A stretch of 44,907 bases of DNA from the sequence record DRR723986_3513; one strand, written 5' to 3'. How positions within the stretch are numbered: the stretch's first letter is position 1; every line of letters starts with the position of its first letter. A program made the translations under genes and the position numbers. The notes beneath the pieces are model-generated. The model had not been told where the DNA came from. It ran no database searches and saw only the letters and a program-made list of their open reading frames with translations. This document shows positions 1 through 11,091 of this stretch, in pieces.

Positions 1-385
1 CGGCCAGTCCTCGATCACCACTGTACGCCTGAGTGGTCAAGAACTCGGTACCAGGGGACAGTTTGCCCAGCGTTTCCAGCTTCTCAATCTTGTGTTGTAG
101 TCGACCGATCTTGGTTTCGTTCATTTCCATCGTGCCGAGTTCAACAGCATTGTCGATGGAGATGCGTCGGATGTGATCGATGGCTTTCTTGCGATCTTCC
201 ATCGGTCGTGATCGCAGTTGCTCAAACGCTTCCCGAGCGGCAGCCACGGCGGCATCGGCGCAGTCGAACTGTCCATGGCGGCCAGCGGATGAGCTCGGCG
301 CAGTCGCGCCAGCGGGTGCTTGGCCACGAACTTCTTCGATTACCTGAGTGACAACACTTCGAATCAGATCTTCACTTATCTGCAT
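1..385 (-). CDS. BMC-associated CoA-acylating aldehyde dehydrogenase (PduP/EutE-like), N-terminal part; runs off the left edge
   Basis: Not in the ORF track. Manual translation from ATG at 385: MQISEDLIRSVVTQVIEEVRGQAPAGATAPSSSAGRHGQFDCADAAVAAAREAFEQLRSRPMEDRKKAIDHIRRISIDNAVELGTMEMNETKIGRLQHKIEKLETLGKLSPGTEFLTTQAYSGDRGLA, open to base 1. It has PduP/EutE-type ETxxGR...K...PGxExL...SGDxGL motifs, an N-terminal encapsulation-peptide-like helix, and lies inside a BMC operon. Confidence 0.9.
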   Translation of the reverse strand, partial: MQISEDLIRSVVTQVIEEVRGQAPAGATAPSSSAGRHGQFDCADAAVAAAREAFEQLRSRPMEDRKKAIDHIRRISIDNAVELGTMEMNETKIGRLQHKIEKLETLGKLSPGTEFLTTQAYSGDRGLA

Positions 386-451
386 TTTGTCGTTTCCACG
401 ATTTGAATGGTTCGTTTCGCTCGGGGCCTACGCAATAGCGGTGTAGGCCAA

Positions 452-766
452 TCATCCATCCTGGCGACTGTAAACGGCGTTTTTTTCGATATTGACTGAG
501 TCGACGATTCCGATGACGACACAGTCGATAGGTAGTTTTTGTGTTTCGGGAGTGAAGCGTGCGCTGCTGCCCTGAACAATCAATACGAAGTCGCCTTCGC
601 CAGCACCGAGTGTGTCGACAGCCACGAACGTTCGACCAGTCGTCGTCAATTCACTGCGGCTCTTGCCGTCGAGCCGGTAGGGTTCAACGACGAGTAGCTT
701 TTGCCCTCGCATTGTTTCGACTTTCTCAGTCGAAACGACCGAGCCAGTTACTTTGGCAACAAACAT
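452..766 (-). CDS. BMC vertex (pentamer) protein, EutN/CcmL family
   Basis: MFVAKVTGSVVSTEK...VAVDTLGAGEGDFVL...GSSAR...PIDCVVIGIVD is the EutN/CcmL signature. Confidence 0.95.
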   Translation of the reverse strand: MFVAKVTGSVVSTEKVETMRGQKLLVVEPYRLDGKSRSELTTTGRTFVAVDTLGAGEGDFVLIVQGSSARFTPETQKLPIDCVVIGIVDSVNIEKNAVYSRQDG

Positions 767-812
767 CGTTTGCTTCTTCCTCTAATTTCCGGCGTGCCGG
801 TTCTTGGCTCTG

Positions 813-2018
813 TTAGCCCGCAAGTGCTTTTACCGTTTGCCTCGCCACGATGACTTCCTCGTTGGTCGGCACAACCCAAATCTGTGCCGCAGCGGTTGAG
901 TCATCTATGCGAGTCTCTGTTGCGCGTGTTTTAGCATTCTTGGCATCGTCAAGTTTGAATCCTAGTTCCGAGAGTCCGTCGCAGACCGCAGAACGAATGG
1001 AAGCACCGTTTTCACCGATTCCGCCCGTGAATACTAAAGCGTCGCAGCCTCCCAGGGCTACCAGCATTGATCCAAGTTGTCGCCTGAGTTCTGCAACGTA
1101 GACATCCAGCGAGAGCTGAGCGTCTTCGTTTCCTTCTGCAGCAGCGGCTTCTAAATCGCGAATGTCACCACTGAGACCTCCCGAGACTCCCAGTAGGCCA
1201 CCTTCACTTGCAAGTGTCGCCAGGGTGTTCTCAAGATCCTGGCCCGTGTGTTGCATGATCATCGGCAGGCTAAACGGGTCAAAGTCTCCGACGCGATTAT
1301 TCTGCGGTATGCCAGACTGTGGGCTCATGCCCATTGTCGTGGCAACACTCTTGCCATCATAAATCGCACACAGGCTGCTGGACCCGCCCAGGTGACAGGA
1401 GATCACTCGCTTGCACTCGTCACCAAGCAGCTCGTGGGTGCGAGTTGCGATGTAACGATGGCTTGCGCCGTGGAACCCCCACTTTCGCAGCGGCAACTCT
1501 TCGCTCCATGCCTTGGGTACGGCATAGTGCTTTCGAGCATCAGGGATGGTTTGATGAAAATCGGTTTCGAAAGCGGCTACCAATGGAATGTCCGGAACAG
1601 TTTCCGCAAGTTGTCGCATGGCTGCGATGTACGGCGGGTTGTGTGCCGGAGCTACTTTGGCGACTTCCTGCATCGCTTCGAGAACGGATTCATCTATTTT
1701 GAACACACCTTGTTTGCGTCCACCATGGACCGCTTTAAACCCAATCGCAGCAATCTCGGACGCATCGTTAATGCATCCCGACTTTGGGTCTGTTAGCTGC
1801 GAAATGCAGGCTTCGACGGCAATCCCGTGATGGGGCACTTTCAGGGTGAGTTGTGTTTCTGTACCACCAATTTCAACCGTACACTGGCTTTCTTCGCTGC
1901 CGATTCGCTCCACACCCCCTTTGGCTAGTTGCTGCGGGGAGCCGTCGAGTCCATCGGGCATATCAAAAAGTCGGTATTTGAAGCTGGTCGATCCTAGGTT
2001 TGCAACAAGTACTTTCAT
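813..2018 (-). CDS. ackA: Acetate/propionate kinase of the BMC locus
   Basis: Motifs MKVLVANLGSTSFKY, VHGG, APAHNP, GFHGASH, CHLGGSSS, FTGGIGEN and PTNEE. Confidence 0.93.
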   Translation of the reverse strand: MKVLVANLGSTSFKYRLFDMPDGLDGSPQQLAKGGVERIGSEESQCTVEIGGTETQLTLKVPHHGIAVEACISQLTDPKSGCINDASEIAAIGFKAVHGGRKQGVFKIDESVLEAMQEVAKVAPAHNPPYIAAMRQLAETVPDIPLVAAFETDFHQTIPDARKHYAVPKAWSEELPLRKWGFHGASHRYIATRTHELLGDECKRVISCHLGGSSSLCAIYDGKSVATTMGMSPQSGIPQNNRVGDFDPFSLPMIMQHTGQDLENTLATLASEGGLLGVSGGLSGDIRDLEAAAAEGNEDAQLSLDVYVAELRRQLGSMLVALGGCDALVFTGGIGENGASIRSAVCDGLSELGFKLDDAKNAKTRATETRIDDSTAAAQIWVVPTNEEVIVARQTVKALAG

Positions 2019-2078
2019 CCGTGTTTTTCCTGCGACAAAATTGGTAGCGATACAGTCGGCTGTGGCAGAACCTTCGAC

Positions 2079-2348
2079 TTAGGCGAAGAAGGCCGTATCA
2101 AGTCCTTCGGCTGGGCGAGGAATGATGTGGCTGCCAACTAGGTCGCCAACTTGCGAAGCGGCTGAAGCACCCGCTTCGACGGCAGCGCGAACACTGCCAA
2201 CGTCGCCGCTAACAACGGTGGTGACCAAGCCGCCGCCGATGTCGACGCGCTTTACGATATTTACGCTAGCGGCTTTCACCATTGCGTCGGTCGCTTCTAC
2301 GAGTGCCAGCAAGCCCTTCGTTTCGATAAGTCCAATTGCGTTTTGCAT
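2079..2348 (-). CDS. BMC-H shell protein
   Basis: MQNAIGLIETKG...DAMVKAASV...GDVGSVRAAVEAG...HIIPRP. Start moved to ATG 2348, where the BMC domain begins. Confidence 0.93.
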   Translation of the reverse strand: MQNAIGLIETKGLLALVEATDAMVKAASVNIVKRVDIGGGLVTTVVSGDVGSVRAAVEAGASAASQVGDLVGSHIIPRPAEGLDTAFFA

Positions 2349-2496
2349 TTTGTTATCCAGGTTGTGTTGTTCAGTTTGTAGGAAGGTAAACTGCAGTTGT
2401 TCGGTGTCGTCTTCCAACGTATTCACTTTGGTGCACCGCCATCTGCGATGAATTGTGGTCCATGCAGGACTGCAAGTTCAAGGATGTGTTTCAGCG

Positions 2497-2781
2497 CTAT
2501 GAGCCGACTTTGAGAACCTTTGGCAGGTCCTCGTGTGGTCGGGCGATCACTTGTACGCTGACGACTTCGCCGATGCGACCTGCTGCTGTTGCTCCAGCGT
2601 CGGTTGCCGCTTTAACGGCAGCTACGTCGCCGGTGACGAATGCCGAAACCATTCCGCTGCCTACCTTGTCCCATCCAATAAACTGCACGTTGGCAGCCTT
2701 CATCATGGCGTCGGTGGCTTCGACAAGGGCGATAAGGCCCTTGGTTTCAATCATTCCTAAGGCTTCTGAGATCTGTGCCAT
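2497..2781 (-). CDS. BMC-H shell protein (PduA/EutM-like)
   Basis: [10 protein letters not shown]...DAMMKAANV...[13 protein letters not shown]...VIARPH. ATG 2781 is preceded by a GAGGAG Shine-Dalgarno. Confidence 0.95.
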
Positions 2782-2876
2782 GTCCGGTTTTCTCCTCGCT
2801 TTTGGCATCGTAAATTCAGCCCGCGAAGGCTGTCATAAAGGTTCGAAATTTAGTTATGGAAGGAGCTGCGAGTGTG

Positions 2877-3575
2877 CTAACTGGAGCAACTGCAGCCTCC
2901 CTGGGGTTTGAGTTCAACGTGAGTCGCTGCGTCCAAGTTGCACGCATTGCCTTCGTCAGTATCAATGTGAACTTCCAGCTTGGCCGCCGGGTCCGCGCGA
3001 ACGAGCAAGTCGTCGAACGAAACACTGCACTGGTGACTGGTGACTTTGAGTGACATGAAATCGCCATTAGCCACGCCGTAGTAGGCTGCTTCATCGTGGC
3101 TCATGTGTACGTGTCGTGCGGCGCGGATGACCCCCTTGTCTAACTCGACCGTGCCGGCCGGTCCGACCAGTACACAACCGGGCGTGCCGTCTATGTCTCC
3201 GGAGTGCCGAATAGGAGCATCGATTCCAAGGGAAATCGCATCCGTGAGCGCCAATTCCACTTGGCTGTGTCCGCGAGTTGGTCCAAGTACGCGGACCTCT
3301 GGAAGCATGCGGCGTCGAGGGCCGACGATCATGACCGTCTGCTCAGCAGCATAAAAGCCATCCTGGTAAAGCGGCTTTGCTGGGACGAGTGTCTTGCCCT
3401 TTCCGAACAGGCGTTCAACATGTTCGTCTGTAAGGTGGACGTGCCGAGCGGAGATGCTCACCCGTAGGTCGGGCTCAGTTGGCGCGGCGGTGTCCTGGCT
3501 CTGCGAAGCGACTTGCTGAACAACTCGACGAACAAGCTGTTCGATCTGAGAACGGTCTACATGCGCTGTTGTCAT
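2877..3575 (-). CDS. pduL: Phosphate propanoyltransferase PduL with N-terminal encapsulation-peptide-like helix
   Basis: Motifs [29 protein letters not shown] and [10 protein letters not shown]-terminal [18 protein letters not shown]. Confidence 0.93.
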
Positions 3576-4405
3576 GCTTCTACTCTTGATTTATGCAGTA
3601 CTAAGTGTGAGCTTGCGATTTTGTCTTCGGCTAATCGATCCGCTAAGACAAGCTCAACGTCGGATTCGGTTAGTTGTTCTTGCCAACGTTTGGGAAGCTC
3701 GCTGTCTGTTACAACGGTTTGAACTGAACGGAGTTCACCCAGCTTCGATAGTGAACTTTTTCCAAACTTGCTACTGTCGGCGACAACGATGGTACGATCA
3801 GCACACTGCATCATGGCTCGTTCTGTTTCGACGAGCAGCAGGTTGCTGTTGTAGTAGCCGCGTTCGTCGGCACCGGCGATGCTGAGGACTGCGGTCTGGA
3901 CGTTCAGTGTTGACAGCATTTCATTGGCGTAAGGCCCAAGCGATACGCCAGTGCGATTGTGAACGTAGCCTCCCAGCAAGACGAGATCGACTTGTTCGCT
4001 TGTCGAAAACAAGTTCGCCAGCGGAAGCGAGTTTGTAACAACTTGCAGCGGAATCCCCGTGAGCTGCTGAGCGAGCTCGTAGGTCGTGCTGCCGCCGTCC
4101 ATCACGAGCGTTTCGTGCGGCTCAATCAATTTGGCCGCGGCCGCTGCGATTTGTCGTTTCTTTTCCCACTGTTCACTTCGGCGATTCTCAAAAACGCCAA
4201 GCGAAGAAGTCGGGCCAGTTGAAAAGACTCCACCATGAGTCCGCTTCGCCTCGCCCTCCCCTTCCAGGAAATCGAGATCGCGACGCACCGTCGACTCGCT
4301 GACTCCCAGCGTCTCGCGAAGCTCTGGCATGGAGACGAATCCCTTCCGCCGGATCAACTCCTTGAGCTGAGATCGTCTTTGGTCAGTTGTGGGAGCAGTG
4401 CTCAA
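3572..4405 (-). CDS. DeoR/GlpR family regulator heading the BMC operon (PvmR-like)
   Basis: [15 protein letters not shown] and RTHGG; sensor-domain motifs DGGSTT, TNSL, ADSSKF. The stop overlaps the pduL start. TTG 4405 is preferred over 4468 because a GAGG lies just upstream. Confidence 0.9.
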
Positions 4406-4435
4406 CGCCGCCTCGCGATGAAAGCTTTCGTGGAA

Positions 4436-4462
4436 GATTTCCTTCACGCAGTGAAAGAAATC
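4436..4462. promoter_or_regulatory. Inverted repeat, candidate operator of the BMC operon
   Basis: GATTTCCTTCAC-gca-GTGAAAGAAATC: 12-bp arms with 1 mismatch, about 30 nt upstream of the proposed DeoR start. Confidence 0.45.
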
Positions 4463-4709
4463 GCTCATAAGTCTACCACCCCGCGGCGTGTTTTCAAGAC
4501 TTTGGCGGGTTAAAGATTGCGCAATTGCCGCAAATTAACTTTTCCGGCAGCGCAAACGCCACAATCCGTCCTATGCAGCGATGCGTGCGATGGGCGTTCT
4601 CGCGGTCGGATCCGGCCTTCGTTCGATAGGTTCCTTCGGTCAATCCAGCTTGGTTTGAAGCTCCTGCGCTTCAGGAACCGTCTATTTGCAGGTTTGAAAC
4701 GATTTAGGG

Positions 4710-4738
4710 CTGCAAACTCAGGAAAGACCAGTGATAAT
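4710..4738 (+). promoter_or_regulatory. Candidate sigma70 promoter of the metal ABC operon
   Basis: CTGCAA (4710-4715), 17-nt spacer, GATAAT (4733-4738). The -35 is weak. Confidence 0.4.
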
Positions 4739-4742
4739 CATT

Positions 4743-4758
4743 TGTAGCCATGGCTACA
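4743..4758. promoter_or_regulatory. MntR/DtxR-type operator (perfect palindrome)
   Basis: TGTAGCCATGGCTACA is a perfect 16-bp palindrome with a TAGC-N4-GCTA core like the E. coli MntR box. It lies just downstream of the -10 and 22 nt before the ATG. Confidence 0.7.
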
Positions 4759-4780
4759 TTCACCCCGCGTTGGTCCAGCG

Positions 4781-5593
4781 ATGTCCGCCGAAACTGATTC
4801 ACAATCCAGTCCTGAAGCAAACCAGGCGGAGCAACCGCCTTTGGAGGTTGATGATTTAACTGTGGCTTACGATCGCAAGCCTGTGATATGGGATGTCCAG
4901 TTCTCGATTCCGCCTGGCAGTCTGGTTGGTATTGTTGGGCCGAACGGAGCTGGTAAGAGCACGCTCCTGAAAGCGATCATGGGACTAACCAAGACGGCCA
5001 GTGGGCGGGTCCAGGTTTTTGGGACAACCTACCGCAAGGCCCGGCACAGGGTGGGTTACGTTCCGCAGCGCGAGAGTGTCGATTGGGATTTCCCGGTCAC
5101 TGCGGTCGATGTGGTTAGTATGGGGCTGTATTCCAAAATCGGTTGGTTTCGTCCGGTTACGAAACGATACACCGAAGCGGCCTTGGAAGCTCTCGCCCAG
5201 GTTGGCATGGCCGATCTGGCCCATCGTCAGATTAGCCAGCTATCCGGCGGGCAGCAGCAACGGACGTTCCTCGCTCGCGCTTTGGTTCAAGATGCTGATC
5301 TGTATCTCATGGATGAGCCCTTTGCCGCAGTTGACGCGTCGACAGAGAAGGCCATCGTGGGAATTCTGCGCTCCATGAAAGCCGCAGGGAAGACGGCGGT
5401 TGTGATTCATCACGATTTGCAAACCGTGCCAGAGTACTTCGACTATGTCATCTTGCTCAACATGCGGGTCGTCGCCCATGGTGATGTTGGCGACGTCTTT
5501 GTGCCTGAGAATTTGCAAGCAACCTACGGTGGTCGGCTAACGCTGCTCGATGAAGCAACTGAAGCGATGCGGCGCAAAGGGCGGTCGCTCTGA
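4781..5593 (+). CDS. Mn/Zn/Fe ABC transporter ATP-binding protein (TroB/MntB-like)
   Basis: Walker A GPNGAGKST, GYVPQRESVDWDFP, signature LSGGQQQR, Walker B YLMDEP, H-loop IHHD. Confidence 0.95.
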   Translation: MSAETDSQSSPEANQAEQPPLEVDDLTVAYDRKPVIWDVQFSIPPGSLVGIVGPNGAGKSTLLKAIMGLTKTASGRVQVFGTTYRKARHRVGYVPQRESVDWDFPVTAVDVVSMGLYSKIGWFRPVTKRYTEAALEALAQVGMADLAHRQISQLSGGQQQRTFLARALVQDADLYLMDEPFAAVDASTEKAIVGILRSMKAAGKTAVVIHHDLQTVPEYFDYVILLNMRVVAHGDVGDVFVPENLQATYGGRLTLLDEATEAMRRKGRSL

Positions 5594-7086
5594 TGTTTCC
5601 ATTGTGGCGTTCTCAAGTTGTTGTTCGTTGCTCCGTTGCGGCTATCGGTGCAGTTTTCTGTTTACTGACTGCTGCGGTAACTCGTGCTGGCATGCTTGAT
5701 GAGCCTAGCATCGGTCTTGTAAGTGTGACAGAGAATAGCCTGCCCGGTGCGTTCGGCGACGTCTGGCGTGTGCTTACGCTCCGTGATTACAATACTCGGG
5801 TCGTCCTGTTCGGCACTACAATGCTGGGGGCTGCGTCGGGGCTGGTTGGAAGTTTTACATTGCTGCGAAAAAGGGCGTTGATGGGCGACGCGCTTAGTCA
5901 CGCTACGCTTCCCGGGATTGCGATCGCCTTCATGGTTGGCGTGAGTTTGGGGGGCGATGGGAAATGGTCGCCGGGGTTGTTGATCGGCGCAACCATCAGT
6001 GGTGTTATCGGAGTGCTGACAATTCTGTTCCTCAGACGCAACACAAAGCTAAAGGAAGACACAGCTCTGGGGATCGTGCTAAGTGTGTTTTTCGGCGCTG
6101 GGATTGCGCTGATGCGTCTGGGGCAACAAATGGAGGGCGGTTACGCTGCCGGATTGGAGTCCTTTATTCTGGGCAAGACGGCGAGCATGAGGGCGGCAGA
6201 TGCGGTCCTGATTGCGTGGGCCGCCGTACTCGCTTGTGTTGTTTGCCTGGTGTTCTTCAAGGAACTGTGTTTACTGTGTTTCGACGATGCCTACGCGGGC
6301 AGTCGAGGTTATCCAGTGCTCGTGCTAGATCTCGCGCTCATGGCGTGCGTAGTGACCGTGTCCATCGTTGGGTTGCAGGCCGTGGGGCTGGTCCTAATGA
6401 TTGCTTTGTTGATCATTCCGGCTGCAGCAGCCAGGTTTTGGACCCAGTCGCTGAGCATCATGCTCGCGATTGCCGCCTTTATCGGTGGTGCCGGTGCGTG
6501 TTCGGGTGCCCTGTTGAGTGCCATGTGGCCTGATTTGCCCAGCGGCGCAATGATTGTCATTATGTGCGCTGCAATGTTTGCGATCAGTTTAATTTTTGGT
6601 AGTCACCGAGGACTCGTACAGCGGTTACGACTTTCGCGTGCGGTTGAACAGACCGTCGATCGGCAGCACCTGCTGCGCGACTTATTCGAGATTGGCGAGG
6701 CAACTGGGATTCTGAAGCCGTCGACCCAGACCCTTCTCAAGCAAAGGACTTGGTCGAGTTTCCGTCTGCATCAGACGATTCGCCGAGCGGCTTCGCACGG
6801 CTTGGTAACTTTGACGACCAGCGGTGTGAAGTTAACGCGGAAGGGGCGGGTTGAGGCGCGGCGTTTGACACGCGAACATCGACTGTGGGAACTCTATCTG
6901 ATCTCGCACGCCGACATTGCCACCGCCAGGGTGGATCGCGCTGCAGATCGGATTGAACACGTTCTTGAACCTGAAGTTATTGCTGAGCTTGAGTCGTTGC
7001 TTGATCAGGAAACTGCGCTCGTACCCAGCAGTCCACATGCGGCTGAACCATTGGGTGATGCTGCGAGCCCGGAGGCTTCGCAATGA
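5593..7086 (+). CDS. Metal ABC permease (TroC-like) fused to a C-terminal DtxR/MntR-like domain
   Basis: ABC-3 motifs LRKRALMGDALSHATLPG and KEDTALG; C-terminal VKLTRKGRVEARRLTREHRLWELYL...ADRIEH. TGATG overlap with the ATPase gene. Confidence 0.9.
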   Translation: MFPLWRSQVVVRCSVAAIGAVFCLLTAAVTRAGMLDEPSIGLVSVTENSLPGAFGDVWRVLTLRDYNTRVVLFGTTMLGAASGLVGSFTLLRKRALMGDALSHATLPGIAIAFMVGVSLGGDGKWSPGLLIGATISGVIGVLTILFLRRNTKLKEDTALGIVLSVFFGAGIALMRLGQQMEGGYAAGLESFILGKTASMRAADAVLIAWAAVLACVVCLVFFKELCLLCFDDAYAGSRGYPVLVLDLALMACVVTVSIVGLQAVGLVLMIALLIIPAAAARFWTQSLSIMLAIAAFIGGAGACSGALLSAMWPDLPSGAMIVIMCAAMFAISLIFGSHRGLVQRLRLSRAVEQTVDRQHLLRDLFEIGEATGILKPSTQTLLKQRTWSSFRLHQTIRRAASHGLVTLTTSGVKLTRKGRVEARRLTREHRLWELYLISHADIATARVDRAADRIEHVLEPEVIAELESLLDQETALVPSSPHAAEPLGDAASPEASQ

Positions 7087-8432
7087 CGCTCTTGGCGGAA
7101 AGTGGCAGCACGCTGGCAAGCCTGCAGTGGAGTTGGGCACTCGACGGTTGGATTATCGCTGTCGCCTGTTTGTGTGCAGTCTCGGCCAGCCTGCTGGGCA
7201 ATTTTCTTGTCCTGCGGCGTATGAGCATGCTTGGCGATGCTATCAGCCATGCTGTTTTACCAGGGCTCGCTGCCGCGTTCTTTCTTAGTGGAAGTCGCAG
7301 CAGTCTGCCCATGTTTCTGGGGGCGGTCGTGGTCGGTGTGCTGACCGCTTTCTTTACCCAGTGGATTCATCGAGCCGGGCGAGTGGACGAAGGGGCTTCA
7401 ATGGGCGTCGTCTTCACGACCCTGTTCGCGATTGGCTTGTTAATGATTCAACAAGCTGCAAAGAACGTCGACTTGGATGCAAGCTGCGTACTCTATGGTG
7501 CGATCGAGCTAACACCACTGGATCGAGTTTCCATTGCTGGGTTCGACGTGCCGCGGGCGGCAGCAGTATTGTCTATCGTCGCGCTGCTTAACTTCATTTG
7601 CGTGGGGTTGTTCTACAAAGAGCTGAAGTTAGCTTCTTTCGATCCGGCTCTCGCGACAACGCTCGGGTACAATGCAACGTTCATGCACTACCTCTTGATG
7701 GTGCTCGTAGCGATTACCGCAGTAGCCAGTTTTGAAAGTGTCGGAAATGTTCTGGTCGTGGCAATGTTTGTCGTCCCTCCAGCGACGGCATTTCTGTTGA
7801 CGACGCGTCTGCACTTGATGATTGCGATTAGTTTGGTGATCGCGCTGGTTTCGGCTAGTGCTGGTCACTGGAGCGCTATGGTTGTACCGCGGTACTTTGG
7901 ATTTGAGAGTACGACAACGGCCAGCATGATGAGCGTCGTTGCGGGCTGTCTACTGCTGTTGGCAGTTTTGTTTTCTCCTACCCAGGGCGTTGTGGTTCGG
8001 CTGCTTCGACGAGTCGGGTTGTCCATGAGGATTGTTTCGGACGATATCATCGCTGTTGTCTATCGTCACGAAGAAGGCCAAGACGGTGGTCCACCGATTG
8101 AGGTTGAGTCGCTGTCCAAGGTGTTGCTATGTCGCATGGCAACGTTGCGATTGGCGATCAAGCGGCTCCGAAAGGCGGGGGACTTGGAGGGGACCGACGC
8201 TTTGAAGTTGACCAAGCAAGGGCGAGCCAAAGCTCAGAATCTCGTGCGTTCTCACCGATTGTGGGAGCAATACTTGCAAGAACATGCCGGTGTACCGCCG
8301 ACCCGCGTGCACAGCACTGCAGAGCGACTCGAGCACTTTACCGATGTTGGCCTGCGCGGCAAACTGAATGAGGAGACCAATCAGCCGGGACAGGATCCGC
8401 ACGGACGCCCCATTCCTGAGGAAAGCGAATAG
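7083..8432 (+). CDS. Metal ABC permease (TroD-like) fused to a C-terminal DtxR/MntR-like domain
   Basis: LRRMSMLGDAISHAVLPG, FESVG; C-terminal LTKQGRAKAQNLVRSHRLWEQYL...AERLEHF...DPHGRPIP. ATGA overlap with the upstream gene. Confidence 0.92.
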   Translation: MTLLAESGSTLASLQWSWALDGWIIAVACLCAVSASLLGNFLVLRRMSMLGDAISHAVLPGLAAAFFLSGSRSSLPMFLGAVVVGVLTAFFTQWIHRAGRVDEGASMGVVFTTLFAIGLLMIQQAAKNVDLDASCVLYGAIELTPLDRVSIAGFDVPRAAAVLSIVALLNFICVGLFYKELKLASFDPALATTLGYNATFMHYLLMVLVAITAVASFESVGNVLVVAMFVVPPATAFLLTTRLHLMIAISLVIALVSASAGHWSAMVVPRYFGFESTTTASMMSVVAGCLLLLAVLFSPTQGVVVRLLRRVGLSMRIVSDDIIAVVYRHEEGQDGGPPIEVESLSKVLLCRMATLRLAIKRLRKAGDLEGTDALKLTKQGRAKAQNLVRSHRLWEQYLQEHAGVPPTRVHSTAERLEHFTDVGLRGKLNEETNQPGQDPHGRPIPEESE

Positions 8433-8499: not shown

Positions 8500-11091
8500 C
8501 TAGCTCGCCGTTGGTTCTTCGGTGAAGGTAGTTTTCAGCACGGATCGCCACTTCTGAATGTCCGAGGCGAGCATGGATGCGTCGGAAGTCTCCGGCAGAA
8601 GCGCTTGTCGATTTCCTGCGGACCAAATCAGGCTGGAGCGAAGCAGTCCGCTATCGTCGCATTCCAACTGCAACTGCAGCGGGTCTGCTGCATCGCGTTG
8701 GGGAAAGAGGTTTGACGGGCGTACTCGACCGAGCTTCAGCCAGTGCGTTCCGCCTTGACTTGTGCCTTCGATGATCTGCACCGGTGGAAACGAGCCTTCA
8801 GCGTCCGCGCTCGGGCGAAGCGTGTTTGCAAAAGCGGCTGGCAGGTTCGTGCCAGCCGGAATTAAGACTTTGGGTTTCAATCCCTGGTCGGTTGCGGTCA
8901 CGATGGCCAAGTCGTAGGCGGTGCAACCGACAGAACGCAGCGTATCACCAGTCGACGATAGGCGAGTCAGATAGTGTGCTTGAATGGCCGCACCACGTGC
9001 CAAGTCCGCTTTTTCGAGCAGTTCAACCGGAGTACCTGCGGGAAAGATCTTCTTAATGTTGTTTTGAATCGCACGGATCCTCATCAGGGAACCCGTCAGC
9101 AGTACTTGGTCCACGTCGGCAACATCCATCTTTGCTGTCTGGCAAGCGGCTTGAATGCTGTTTTCGATTTGCTTAAGTTCTGTTGGTGCGATTCGAACCA
9201 GTCCCTCCTGCGTGACAACTTGTTGAATCGTCTCGCCTTCCCAGGTGAACTGGATTTCGATTTTGTTGGTGCGAGTCAATCGATCGAGGGCGAGTTCCAG
9301 GGTTCGTTGTAGGCGGGTTGCGGCCGCCACGTCCTCTCGGATGGATTTGCCTGTTTTCTCCTTGAAGACGCCTGCGAAAAACTCACCAAGCAAGAATTGC
9401 CAACGCCCGCTACCAAGTTTCCAGTTGCCGTGGGTGCCCAGTTGCCTGACCACTCGGCCCTCTGCACTGACGACCGAGGCTTCCATGCACGAGCCGCCCA
9501 GGTGGACCACTAGGATTCGGTTTGCGGCTGTTTGGTTCTTGTCCGCAGCAAGGCGGCTGTTCAGGTCAAGCCAACACATGGCGGCCGCGAGCGGTTTGTC
9601 CAGCAACTGTACCAGTTCCACGTCGGCCACTTCGCAGGCGGTTCGAACTGCTCTGCGGTGCAATTGGTCGTAACAAGCCGGCACAGTAACGATCGCACTG
9701 CGGCCGCCTTCGGTAATGCTACTCGCATTACGCATGATTTGTTTGACGATTGCAGCGAGTGCAACCTCCGGCGGTGGATTCAGGCCACCGATCTGCCAGT
9801 TGACCTCTGAAGCGCCCACCCACCGCTGAACGCTGTGTAGGATGCTTCCCGGATCGGCTTGCCGTTTTGAAGTCGCTGCCTGGCCGACACAGATCTTTCC
9901 ACCAGAGTTGGAAAGCATGTTGCGAATATGCTGCGCGTTCCCTTCGCCCTGCTGAATGATTTGCGGGCCGACCTCAGCGTCAAAATAGGCGGCGGTGCTG
10001 ACCAACATTCCCAGGTCGATGGCAACGATTTGCGATTTCTTGGCGAGCGTAGATCTGCTCATCGCGACACTGGTGGGATTGTCGGCGATCAATCGCCCTG
10101 CCCCGCGACGAAACGCGCCCAGGACTGCTGGACGCGATGCGAGATTCATTTCGTGCAGATCCGCAAGCAGAGCCTCTGCGGAATCGTAGCGTTCTTCTGG
10201 TTTCTTGGCGACTAACTTTTGGAACAAAGCATCCAGGCGCAAGTCGATGTCAGGACGAACGGTGTAAAGGGCTGGTGGCTTGTTTCGCAACTGGGCTGTC
10301 GCGACCTGCATCGCTTGGCCGGAGAACATCGCTCGACCGGTTAGCAGGTAATACAGAGTCGCTCCGAGAGAGTAGAGATCGCTACGGCCGTCCACTGACT
10401 CGGGGTCTTCTATTTGTTCGGGCGACATGTACTCGGGCGTGCCCATGAACATGTTCTTCTGCGTGTTGGTCCGCGGGGCTTTGCTAATATGGGCCAGCCC
10501 GAAGTCGAGGATTTTCAGCTTGCCGTCGCGGGCCAGCATCATGTTGCTGGGCTTGATGTCACGATGCACAATGCCCATTGAATGCGCGTAGACGAGCGCC
10601 TCAGCGGCTTGTTCAAGCACGTTGACGGCCTCGCTACTGCTCAATGAACCGTGTTCGCGAACCTGTTGCGACAGCACTTCGCCATCAACCAGCTCCATGA
10701 CAAGATAGTGTTTGTCATCGCAAGATCCAGCGTCGAACGCCGTGACGATATTGGGGTGCATCAACTGTGCCACGGCCCGCACTTCCGAATAGAACTGCGC
10801 TAGTGCCTGCTCGTGTGCAGAAATCGAATCGCCAAGCACCTTAAGTGCGACTTGACGGTTCATCGTGCGATGCTCAGCGCGATAGACCTTCCCCATCCCA
10901 CCGGAACCAATCGGCTCGATCAGCAAGTACTCTCCCAGCAAACCAACCGTCGCATTGCTAGACGGTTCGGCTTCCAGGAAATCAAAATCATCCTCTTCAA
11001 AGCCCTGGAGATCGTCGTCTCCGGCAGCAAACTGCGTCGCATCTTCCTGATACTGAGGAGGCCTTTGTGAGCTAGGTTTCTCGTCGGACAT
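8500..11091 (-). CDS. Hanks-type Ser/Thr kinase fused to a degenerate Hsp70 (DnaK-like) domain
   Basis: Kinase motifs GSGGMGKV, VALK, HRDIKPSN, DFG, GTPEYMSPEQ. Hsp70-like motifs AIDLG, AIVTVPA, PLAAA, VVHLGG, VDQVLLTG, LARGAAIQA. No transmembrane segment is evident. Confidence 0.88.
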   Translation of the reverse strand: MSDEKPSSQRPPQYQEDATQFAAGDDDLQGFEEDDFDFLEAEPSSNATVGLLGEYLLIEPIGSGGMGKVYRAEHRTMNRQVALKVLGDSISAHEQALAQFYSEVRAVAQLMHPNIVTAFDAGSCDDKHYLVMELVDGEVLSQQVREHGSLSSSEAVNVLEQAAEALVYAHSMGIVHRDIKPSNMMLARDGKLKILDFGLAHISKAPRTNTQKNMFMGTPEYMSPEQIEDPESVDGRSDLYSLGATLYYLLTGRAMFSGQAMQVATAQLRNKPPALYTVRPDIDLRLDALFQKLVAKKPEERYDSAEALLADLHEMNLASRPAVLGAFRRGAGRLIADNPTSVAMSRSTLAKKSQIVAIDLGMLVSTAAYFDAEVGPQIIQQGEGNAQHIRNMLSNSGGKICVGQAATSKRQADPGSILHSVQRWVGASEVNWQIGGLNPPPEVALAAIVKQIMRNASSITEGGRSAIVTVPACYDQLHRRAVRTACEVADVELVQLLDKPLAAAMCWLDLNSRLAADKNQTAANRILVVHLGGSCMEASVVSAEGRVVRQLGTHGNWKLGSGRWQFLLGEFFAGVFKEKTGKSIREDVAAATRLQRTLELALDRLTRTNKIEIQFTWEGETIQQVVTQEGLVRIAPTELKQIENSIQAACQTAKMDVADVDQVLLTGSLMRIRAIQNNIKKIFPAGTPVELLEKADLARGAAIQAHYLTRLSSTGDTLRSVGCTAYDLAIVTATDQGLKPKVLIPAGTNLPAAFANTLRPSADAEGSFPPVQIIEGTSQGGTHWLKLGRVRPSNLFPQRDAADPLQLQLECDDSGLLRSSLIWSAGNRQALLPETSDASMLASDIQKWRSVLKTTFTEEPTAS

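Follow-up and report, generated by a model that had tools for sequence, protein, structure and literature searches.

DtxR-like tails on both permeases of a manganese-type ABC importer: candidate metal sensors beside a probable free MntR

Why should both membrane subunits of a metal importer end in a module that resembles a DtxR-family repressor? The question is raised by a three-gene operon, encoding the ATPase and two permeases of a planctomycete ATP-binding cassette (ABC) importer, in a 44,907-nucleotide stretch of DNA from sequence record DRR723986_3513 (the window, here meaning this whole stretch). Permease-DtxR fusions are known from one experimental system, the YtgCR protein of Chlamydia, whose tail is released by cleavage and then represses transcription. 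In the operon described here both permeases are fused, an arrangement that prevails in the Planctomycetota, a large free-living phylum, and that occurs together with a canonical MntR and a predicted MntR operator. Because the tails have also lost the DNA-reading signature of the family while their metal site is strongly constrained, we argue that the fusion acts at the transporter. A first reading of the window, made from the sequence alone (the sequence-only reading), had proposed either a metal-feedback gate or a tethered or cleavable repressor of an upstream palindrome, and these options fare differently in what follows.

Architecture and occurrence of the double fusion

The ATPase and permease 1 genes overlap by one base and those of permeases 1 and 2 by four, as called from the open reading frames (ORFs; Table 1). 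Each permease matches the Pfam profiles of the ABC-3 membrane family (PF00950) and of the DtxR metal-binding and dimerisation domain (Fe_dep_repr_C, PF02742). In permease 1 these matches cover residues 69-335 (E 1.5e-60) and 415-471 (E 5.2e-13), and in permease 2 residues 25-296 (E 1.7e-45) and 377-446 (E 4.8e-20). The profile of the DtxR DNA-binding domain, PF01325, is unmatched in both proteins at E <= 0.1, so that the earlier observation of an unrecognisable recognition-helix motif holds. In sequence searches of the Protein Data Bank (PDB), tail 1 aligned with residues 4-119 of SloR and 9-121 of DtxR (E ~2e-6), and tail 2 with residues 26-137 of the Deinococcus manganese repressor DR2539 and 4-130 of the manganese repressor 5zr4 (E ~6e-11). 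These alignments span both DtxR domains, and a winged helix as well as a dimerisation and metal-binding part is therefore present in each tail. The three genes most likely encode the ATPase and two different permeases of a manganese-type divalent-metal importer of the PsaBC/MntBC/TroCD kind. The best NCBIfam models for the ATPase are manganese ATPases, all under their cut-offs (MntA 228 bits against 400), and no equivalog for a manganese, zinc or iron system reaches its curated cut-off (SloB 147 bits against 460); since every NCBIfam match falls below these limits, the metal specificity is presumptive.

AlphaFold models of the permeases, built on alignments of 70 and 72 rows, gave a predicted local distance difference score (pLDDT) of 90.4 and a predicted template modelling score (pTM) of 0.83 for permease 2, and 86.2 and 0.79 for permease 1. 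Foldseek matched the membrane part of the permease 2 model to PsaC of the pneumococcal manganese importer (7kyp, E 1.2e-13, TM-score on target 0.79). It matched the tail to DR2539 (8pvt_B, E 1.8e-6) with a TM-score of 0.85 and a root-mean-square deviation (rmsd) of 1.7 Å across 133 columns, and to two-domain structures of IdeR with TM-scores of 0.78-0.83. Overall, the DR2539 and IdeR matches of this model have TM-scores on target of 0.78-0.86 and rmsd values of 1.6-2.3 Å across ~133 columns. ORFs, Pfam, PDB alignments and models together bear out the first claim of the sequence-only reading, that both permeases are fused to DtxR/MntR domains.

In both models the last membrane helix (residues 317-335 of permease 1, 279-297 of permease 2) is followed five residues later by a continuous helix of about 30 residues. 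These tether helices (341-371 and 303-332) are predicted at high pLDDT, and no disordered linker between membrane domain and tail is predicted in either permease. The long helix of tail 1 is strongly basic, with a mean net charge of +4.3 as against -4.5 in free MntR proteins. A family-specific motif, HRLWE-YL, is common to both tails and absent from the free regulators. Pairing of the two tails into a heterodimer is plausible: dimerisation of DtxR modules runs through domain 2, and the two permeases have to pair in any case; a complex prediction for tail 1 with tail 2 on 67-row alignments (score 0.01, mark 0.32) speaks neither for nor against it.

The metal-binding positions were transferred through the tail alignments to DtxR, SloR, DR2539 and 5zr4, using what we take to be the DtxR ligands (M10, H79, E83, H98, C102, E105 and H106). 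All seven positions are kept in both tails, as H359, H429, E433, D448, D452, E455 and H456 in tail 1, and D321, H391, E395, H410, E414, E417 and H418 in tail 2. In alignments of 67-72 relatives these columns either do not vary or keep the same residue in at least 90% of rows, D321 being invariant and H359 at least 90% conserved. Only E414 falls short of this: it is no more than the majority residue among the 67 rows of tails, although in the 70-row full-length alignment it too reaches at least 90%. The retention of the ligand motifs in the window, noted earlier, thus extends to primary and ancillary site positions across relatives. An aspartate at the M10 position with a glutamate at the C102 position is presumably a manganese-type pattern, and as such fits the best structural relatives of tail 2.

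All 120 of 120 permease 2 homologues among the matches listed carry both domains; they come from Pirellulales, Planctomycetales and related groups and are named only 'metal ABC transporter permease' or similar. We further classified 80 related loci, obtained in one scan of a species-representative genome collection, by ORF calling and BLAST against the parts of the window. Both permeases are fused in 68 of these, mostly from Planctomycetota. Five loci, all labelled Verrucomicrobiota, have a fused permease 1 only, and one (L075) has neither permease fused. As the five show, the tail of permease 1 can occur without a partner tail. Six further loci are cut or broken and stand outside the 68: permease 2 is cut by the contig end in L001 and L013, permease 1 is cut by the contig start with its tail visible in L025 and L064, and in L037 permease 1 was not found and permease 2 has a weak tail. 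In the sixth, L005 (5316-7633), the ATPase is divided between two ORFs, and so is permease 1, whose tail is an ORF of its own (202 residues); this could be due to assembly frameshifts or be a genuine split. Six loci near-identical to planctomycete ones, in sequence as well as organisation (L018, L026, L027, L028, L030 and L063) come from bins labelled Bdellovibrionales, Candidatus Kuenenia or Chitinophaga, which probably reflects binning or labelling problems and not transfer.

The tail 2 type appears to be essentially always attached to a permease. A search limited to proteins of fewer than 246 residues returned only 11 matches, eight of them on contigs shorter than 3 kb and therefore probably fragments. 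In the ESM Atlas, the nearest look-alikes of tail 2 are clusters of proteins of 150-177 residues with PF02742 only (scores 0.88-0.91), commonest in Verrucomicrobiota and Planctomycetota; these could derive from fused permeases as fragments, or be tail-like proteins that stand alone. A tree of the 88 DtxR-like modules of the loci places tails 1 and 2 together, split from all free regulators with 98% support in the approximate likelihood ratio test (SH-aLRT), and nests the verrucomicrobial tails within the tail 1 group. The tree is unrooted and built on few columns, and its L075 row is unreliable, with a very long branch and odd composition. As a possible order of events, it fits an old tail 1 fusion in common with the Chlamydia arrangement, of which tail 2 would be a later copy.

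The DNA-reading surface of the tails and the upstream box

The two halves of the tails have evolved very differently. PF01325 matched none of the relatives' tails at E <= 0.01 (0/67 for tail 1 and 0/67 for tail 2), compared with 28 of 28 free regulators encoded in the loci, while PF02742 was found in 67 of 67 tails of each type. In the same 20 genomes, mean pairwise identity of the free MntR proteins is 0.69 in both the recognition helix and domain 2; the corresponding values are 0.33 and 0.69 for tail 1, and 0.29 and 0.58 for tail 2. The ratio of non-synonymous to synonymous substitution rates (dN/dS), pooled over 14-15 independent close pairs, shows the same pattern in both permeases. It is 0.065-0.067 for the membrane domains, 0.084 and 0.080 for helix 1 of permeases 1 and 2, 0.229 and 0.230 for the winged helix, and 0.052 and 0.072 for domain 2, which puts the winged helix at about three times the rest of the protein and leaves helix 1 under a constraint like that on the core. 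In free MntR the two halves differ equally, with proportions of non-synonymous differences of 0.152 and 0.158; L075 was left out of this comparison, and proportions were used because saturated synonymous sites make dN/dS of domain 2 incomputable there. The net charge of helix 3 and the wing is positive in the tails (mean +2.8 to +2.9) as in free MntR (+2.2). Judged by these comparisons, the DNA-reading surface of the tails is relaxed about threefold, not decaying.

The palindrome that the sequence-only reading had seen upstream of the operon is real, and belongs to a conserved 20-bp box of predicted MntR type, TTTGTAGCCATGGCTACATT in the window. Within it, positions 4743-4758 form a perfect inverted repeat (a 16-mer), a pattern that matches once in the window as against 0.03 times expected in shuffles. 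K-mer counting and regular expressions upstream of the binding-protein genes of relatives found a box of consensus AATGTAGC-N4-GCTACATT upstream of the operon in 46 of 57 regions. A position weight matrix built from these sites matches ~1 Mb of locus DNA almost solely at the box position, and the whole window only at 4741-4760 (28.8 bits). Directly upstream of the ATPase genes of relatives a palindrome scan found nothing shared, because that region is there occupied by the binding-protein gene. The classical DtxR box was also considered; what we take to be its 19-bp consensus matches the upstream regions at 13-14 of 19 positions only, mostly overlapping the MntR-type box, and such partial matches mean that a classical DtxR box is not present. 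No second conserved motif emerged among the upstream k-mers of relatives.

A scan of 4440-4800 for the sigma-70 consensus reported no plus-strand promoter. The hexamer GATAAT (4733-4738) adjoins the box on its upstream side and, with the preceding bases, resembles part of a Fur-type half-site; judged by eye, it is possibly a -10 element, in which case the transcription start would fall within the box.

The E. coli-type MntR operator described in the available text of PMC1698941 has the same 20-bp, 8-4-8 palindromic layout as the box. Against the enterobacterial MntR consensus quoted there, AACATAGCnnnnGCTATGTT, the family consensus agrees at 12 of the 16 specified positions and the window box at 10, with a half-site of TGTAGC where the enterobacterial site has CATAGC. 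As in the E. coli-type system, the regulators found next to the importer in relatives match PF01325 and PF02742 and are named MntR, but the window itself is without an mntR gene.

The free regulators of the loci, located by BLAST with DtxR-like ORFs, are proteins of ~135-150 residues, usually divergent from the binding-protein gene with the box between the two. PF01325 is found in 28 of 28 and PF02742 in 27 of 28; their 120 best database relatives carry both domains and, where named, are called MntR or DtxR-family manganese regulators. Co-occurrence was counted over the 59 loci whose DNA extends at least 2.2 kb upstream of the ATPase gene. Of these, 47 bear the box and 25 an adjacent MntR-type gene, all 25 with the box; they include the tailless locus L075 and two loci with tail 1 only (L050 and L058). 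Three loci with a larger DtxR-type free regulator (L069, L078 and L080) have no box. Of the 25 loci with an adjacent divergent mntR, 13 have a pair of boxes, spaced 25-34 bases apart ahead of the binding-protein genes; among the 22 box-bearing loci that have no such neighbour, only one does. A divergent mntR that regulates itself would be expected to show this difference. These patterns are most simply read as making the box an operator of free MntR, as predicted from its sequence and distribution.

Two loci carry a third small DtxR-like ORF that starts at the very end of permease 2 (L015 8311-8748 and L021 8320-8709), in addition to a free mntR and two fused tails. These extra ORFs group together in the tree with 97% support, and are placed like troR in the tro operon.

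The box also stands out for its place in the window. In 57 of 63 relatives the ATPase gene is immediately preceded by a ZnuA-family binding-protein gene; inspection of large ORFs and tblastn with three relatives' binding proteins found no gene of the ZnuA/TroA family in the window, and it may lie elsewhere in the same genome. In the interval 4469-4780 the box ends 20 bases short of the ATPase start codon, which looks as though the operator had been left in place when the binding-protein gene was lost or relocated. Two Rhodopirellula loci (L042 and L056) likewise have no binding-protein gene, but they are also without the box.

A tethered sensor and the competing readings

We tentatively propose a two-tier model, somewhat short of an even chance in our estimation, in which transcription is left to free MntR and the tails, as metal sensors tethered to the importer, slow transport. 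Control of transcription would most likely lie with a free, canonical MntR from a gene elsewhere in the genome, acting at the 20-bp box (4741-4760). Both tails would stay attached to the importer, where they would respond, probably as a pair, to metal in the cytoplasm. In DtxR, metal binding ties helix 1 to domain 2. Helix 1 of the tails is continuous with the linker, and metal binding would therefore tie a membrane helix to the sensor. Metal would thus clamp helix 1 to the dimerisation domain, and the clamped helix would restrain the membrane domains and slow import. Such trans-inhibition would amount to a fast post-translational brake beside the slower control by MntR. The model is supported by the constraint on domain 2, whose dN/dS of 0.05-0.07 is on a par with that of the membrane domain (0.065), and the gate foreseen as one option in the sequence-only reading is the reading that fits the present data best. 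In its strictest form, where permanently attached repressor-derived modules, one per permease, form a sensor whose metal binding mechanically locks the importer, we hold the idea a little more loosely.

Several points weigh against this model. Firstly, a free mntR was found neither in the window, by tblastn, nor in the visible DNA of the 22 loci that have the box but no adjacent regulator gene. Secondly, selection on the winged helix is still purifying (dN/dS 0.23), and the fold is kept. The recognition helix of tail 1 is arginine-rich, and R385 (65 of 67), W387 (67 of 67) and semi-conserved arginines on helix 3 are retained, so that some nucleic-acid or other binding role of the tail 1 surface is possible. 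Furthermore, the five Verrucomicrobiota-labelled loci with tail 1 only do not fit a strictly paired sensor. The trans-inhibition domains described in the available text of PMC10710835 are on the ATPase and not the permease, and Chlamydia YtgC is cleaved, with its tail repressing transcription, according to the part of PMC5599777 available. What the analysis shows is the architecture and how widely it is conserved, the retained ligands, the degenerate DNA-reading surface, and the box with its link to free mntR; metal binding by the tails, their pairing, their lasting attachment and any influence on transport are inferred from these.

The best-surviving alternative, which we nonetheless regard as unlikely, is that one or both tails are cut off as in YtgCR, and that a homo- or heterodimer represses at the upstream box or at other, lineage-specific operators. 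Chlamydia is a relative within the Planctomycetes-Verrucomicrobia-Chlamydiae (PVC) group, and according to the available text of PMC5599777 its YtgC is cleaved and the YtgR portion acts as the repressor. The same text cites Thompson et al. 2012 for permease-repressor fusions in 11 phyla. The gene order agrees too, the first permease being the fused one in the Verrucomicrobiota-labelled loci. The tails also keep the full winged-helix and dimerisation fold, the purifying selection on the former and a positive helix-3 and wing charge like that of free MntR, and no free mntR was found in the window or beside 22 of the box-bearing loci. Against this, the box is near-invariant and the recognition helices of the tails are only 29-33% identical, compared with 69% in free MntR; an invariant operator is unlikely to be read by helices this variable, and the tails are therefore unlikely readers of the box. 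PF01325 is missing from all 134 tails, canonical mntR accompanies the box in 25 of 25 mntR-adjacent loci, and the upstream k-mers hold no second conserved motif. The confidently predicted continuous tether helix would provide no disordered linker to expose a cleavage site, and free-standing tail-like genes are almost absent. The proposal of the sequence-only reading that the tails repress the upstream palindrome is accordingly not borne out: the box is of MntR type, has a free mntR next to it in 25 of the 47 loci that bear it, and persists where one or both permeases are tailless (L050, L058 and L075).

It is rather improbable, in our view, that the tails have no regulatory role and serve as a metal acceptor or buffer at the pore exit, or as an assembly clamp that joins the two permeases through structural metal sites. 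Strong conservation of the ligands and dimerisation helices beside a relaxed winged helix speaks for such roles, as does the predicted rigid attachment of the tails. The HRLWE-YL motif, found in both tails and not in the free regulators, and the 98% branch that groups the tails against all free forms count in their favour as well. One related locus is tailless, however, and five have a single tail, and assembly therefore does not need the tails; a clamp would moreover leave a whole winged helix at dN/dS 0.23 unexplained. We know of no precedent for DtxR modules as metal hand-off domains. Least probable is a cross-talk with free MntR, which the tails might, for example, capture at the membrane or join in subunit exchange by way of the dimerisation domain they share, so that transcription would follow how far the transporter is occupied. 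In its favour, the same loci encode a free MntR alongside two tails whose dimerisation domains are related to its own. Against it, long branches with 98% and 100% support separate the tails from free MntR in the tree, and the small MntR proteins give no tblastn match to the window tails at E <= 0.01.

If the tethered-sensor model is true, it would describe a new kind of feedback control for ABC importers, and would show plainly how a repressor fold can become an allosteric regulator of transport. Manganese homeostasis across the Planctomycetota would then have two tiers, with a separate MntR for transcription. One would then also have to look again at what permease-DtxR fusions do in general, given the 11 phyla they are said to span, and to ask whether Chlamydia, with its reduced genome, possibly arrived at cleavage as a derived solution. 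Independently of how the tails work, the conserved box is a usable motif for the MntR regulon of Planctomycetota and Verrucomicrobiota.

Surroundings of the importer and comparison with known systems

The features of the operon and its upstream neighbours are collected in Table 1. Residues 1-65 of permease 1 (5593-5790) comprise a predicted hydrophobic helix (4-34) and a low-confidence stretch (39-49); in relatives, ~0 to 130 residues precede the membrane domain. A bacterial microcompartment (BMC) cluster adjoins the importer on the minus strand (2-4468), and its divergent DeoR regulator is the importer's immediate upstream neighbour. A partial minus-strand ORF at 2-385 has no Pfam match. Downstream, 8500-11091 on the minus strand encodes an 863-residue protein with a Ser/Thr protein kinase domain (57-308) and an Hsp70-like domain (441-847).

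Table 1. Positions of the importer operon, its upstream box and the neighbouring microcompartment genes in the window
Feature	Position	Strand	Remarks
EutN/CcmL vertex protein	452-766	minus	
Acetate kinase	813-2018	minus	
BMC-domain shell proteins (two)	2079-2426, 2497-2808	minus	
PduL-type phosphotransacylase	2877-3575	minus	
DeoR regulator	3572-4468	minus	
MntR-type operator box, 20 bp, predicted	4741-4760		Ends 20 bases before the ATPase start codon
ABC ATPase subunit, MntA/SitB-like, 270 residues	4781-5593	plus	PF00005 E 8.4e-33; C-terminal regulatory domain absent
Permease 1, 497 residues	5593-7086	plus	Variable N-terminal extension; ABC-3 ~66-335; DtxR-like tail 336-497
Permease 1 long helix, residues 341-371	6613-6705	plus	Linker and DtxR helix 1, with H359; secondary structure of the model
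Permease 1 winged helix-turn-helix, residues 378-414	6724-6834	plus	Model; fast-evolving, identity 0.36 against 0.69 in domain 2
Permease 1 metal-binding/dimerisation domain, residues 416-473	6838-7011	plus	PF02742; invariant columns
Permease 2, 449 residues	7083-8432	plus	ABC-3 ~18-297; DtxR-like tail 298-449
Permease 2 long helix, residues 303-332	7989-8078	plus	Linker and DtxR helix 1, with D321; model
Permease 2 winged helix-turn-helix, residues 341-377	8103-8213	plus	Model; least conserved part of the protein, identity 0.29
Permease 2 metal-binding/dimerisation domain, residues 378-446	8214-8420	plus	PF02742 E 4.8e-20; terminal DPHGxPIP motif

A single fusion is already known from Chlamydia. 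Our literature searches turned up neither an account of the double fusion nor one of its occurrence together with MntR and an MntR box, nor any DtxR-permease fusion in planctomycetes; the available text of PMC4652624 likewise holds nothing relevant. The closest known system is YtgC-YtgR of Chlamydia trachomatis (CT069, in ytgABCD), from the same PVC group, where an ABC-3 permease and a C-terminal DtxR-like domain are likewise joined in one ORF. The gene ytgC is, we assume, the first permease gene of its operon, in which case the fused permease is the same as in the Verrucomicrobiota-labelled loci. The systems differ in that both permeases are fused here and the partner is not plain, that a canonical MntR and box accompany the operon in many relatives, and that the tails have no match to the DtxR DNA-binding profile; the likeness is drawn from architecture.

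With the permeases of PsaBC from Streptococcus pneumoniae and of MntBC, SitCD and TroCD, those of the window have the ABC-3 family and the fold of the membrane domain in common. The former end after their last membrane helix, whereas those of the window continue into a regulator-like module. A binding-protein gene, absent from the window in contrast to PsaBC-type importers, is present in most relatives' operons. The tro operon has a separate troR gene after troD (in the available text of PMC2628430), where the window has a regulator-like module inside each permease.

The available text of PMC10710835, a review of trans-inhibition that mentions neither DtxR nor YtgC in that text, describes for MetNI of E. 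coli and ModBC of Methanosarcina acetivorans a cytoplasmic domain that binds the transported substrate and restricts the conformational cycle. The logic proposed for the tails is the same, their function being our conjecture. In MetNI and ModBC the regulatory domains follow the ATPase and have other folds, whereas the candidates described here follow the permeases and derive from a transcription factor; if they work as we propose, they would be the first trans-inhibition device on the membrane subunits of an ABC importer.

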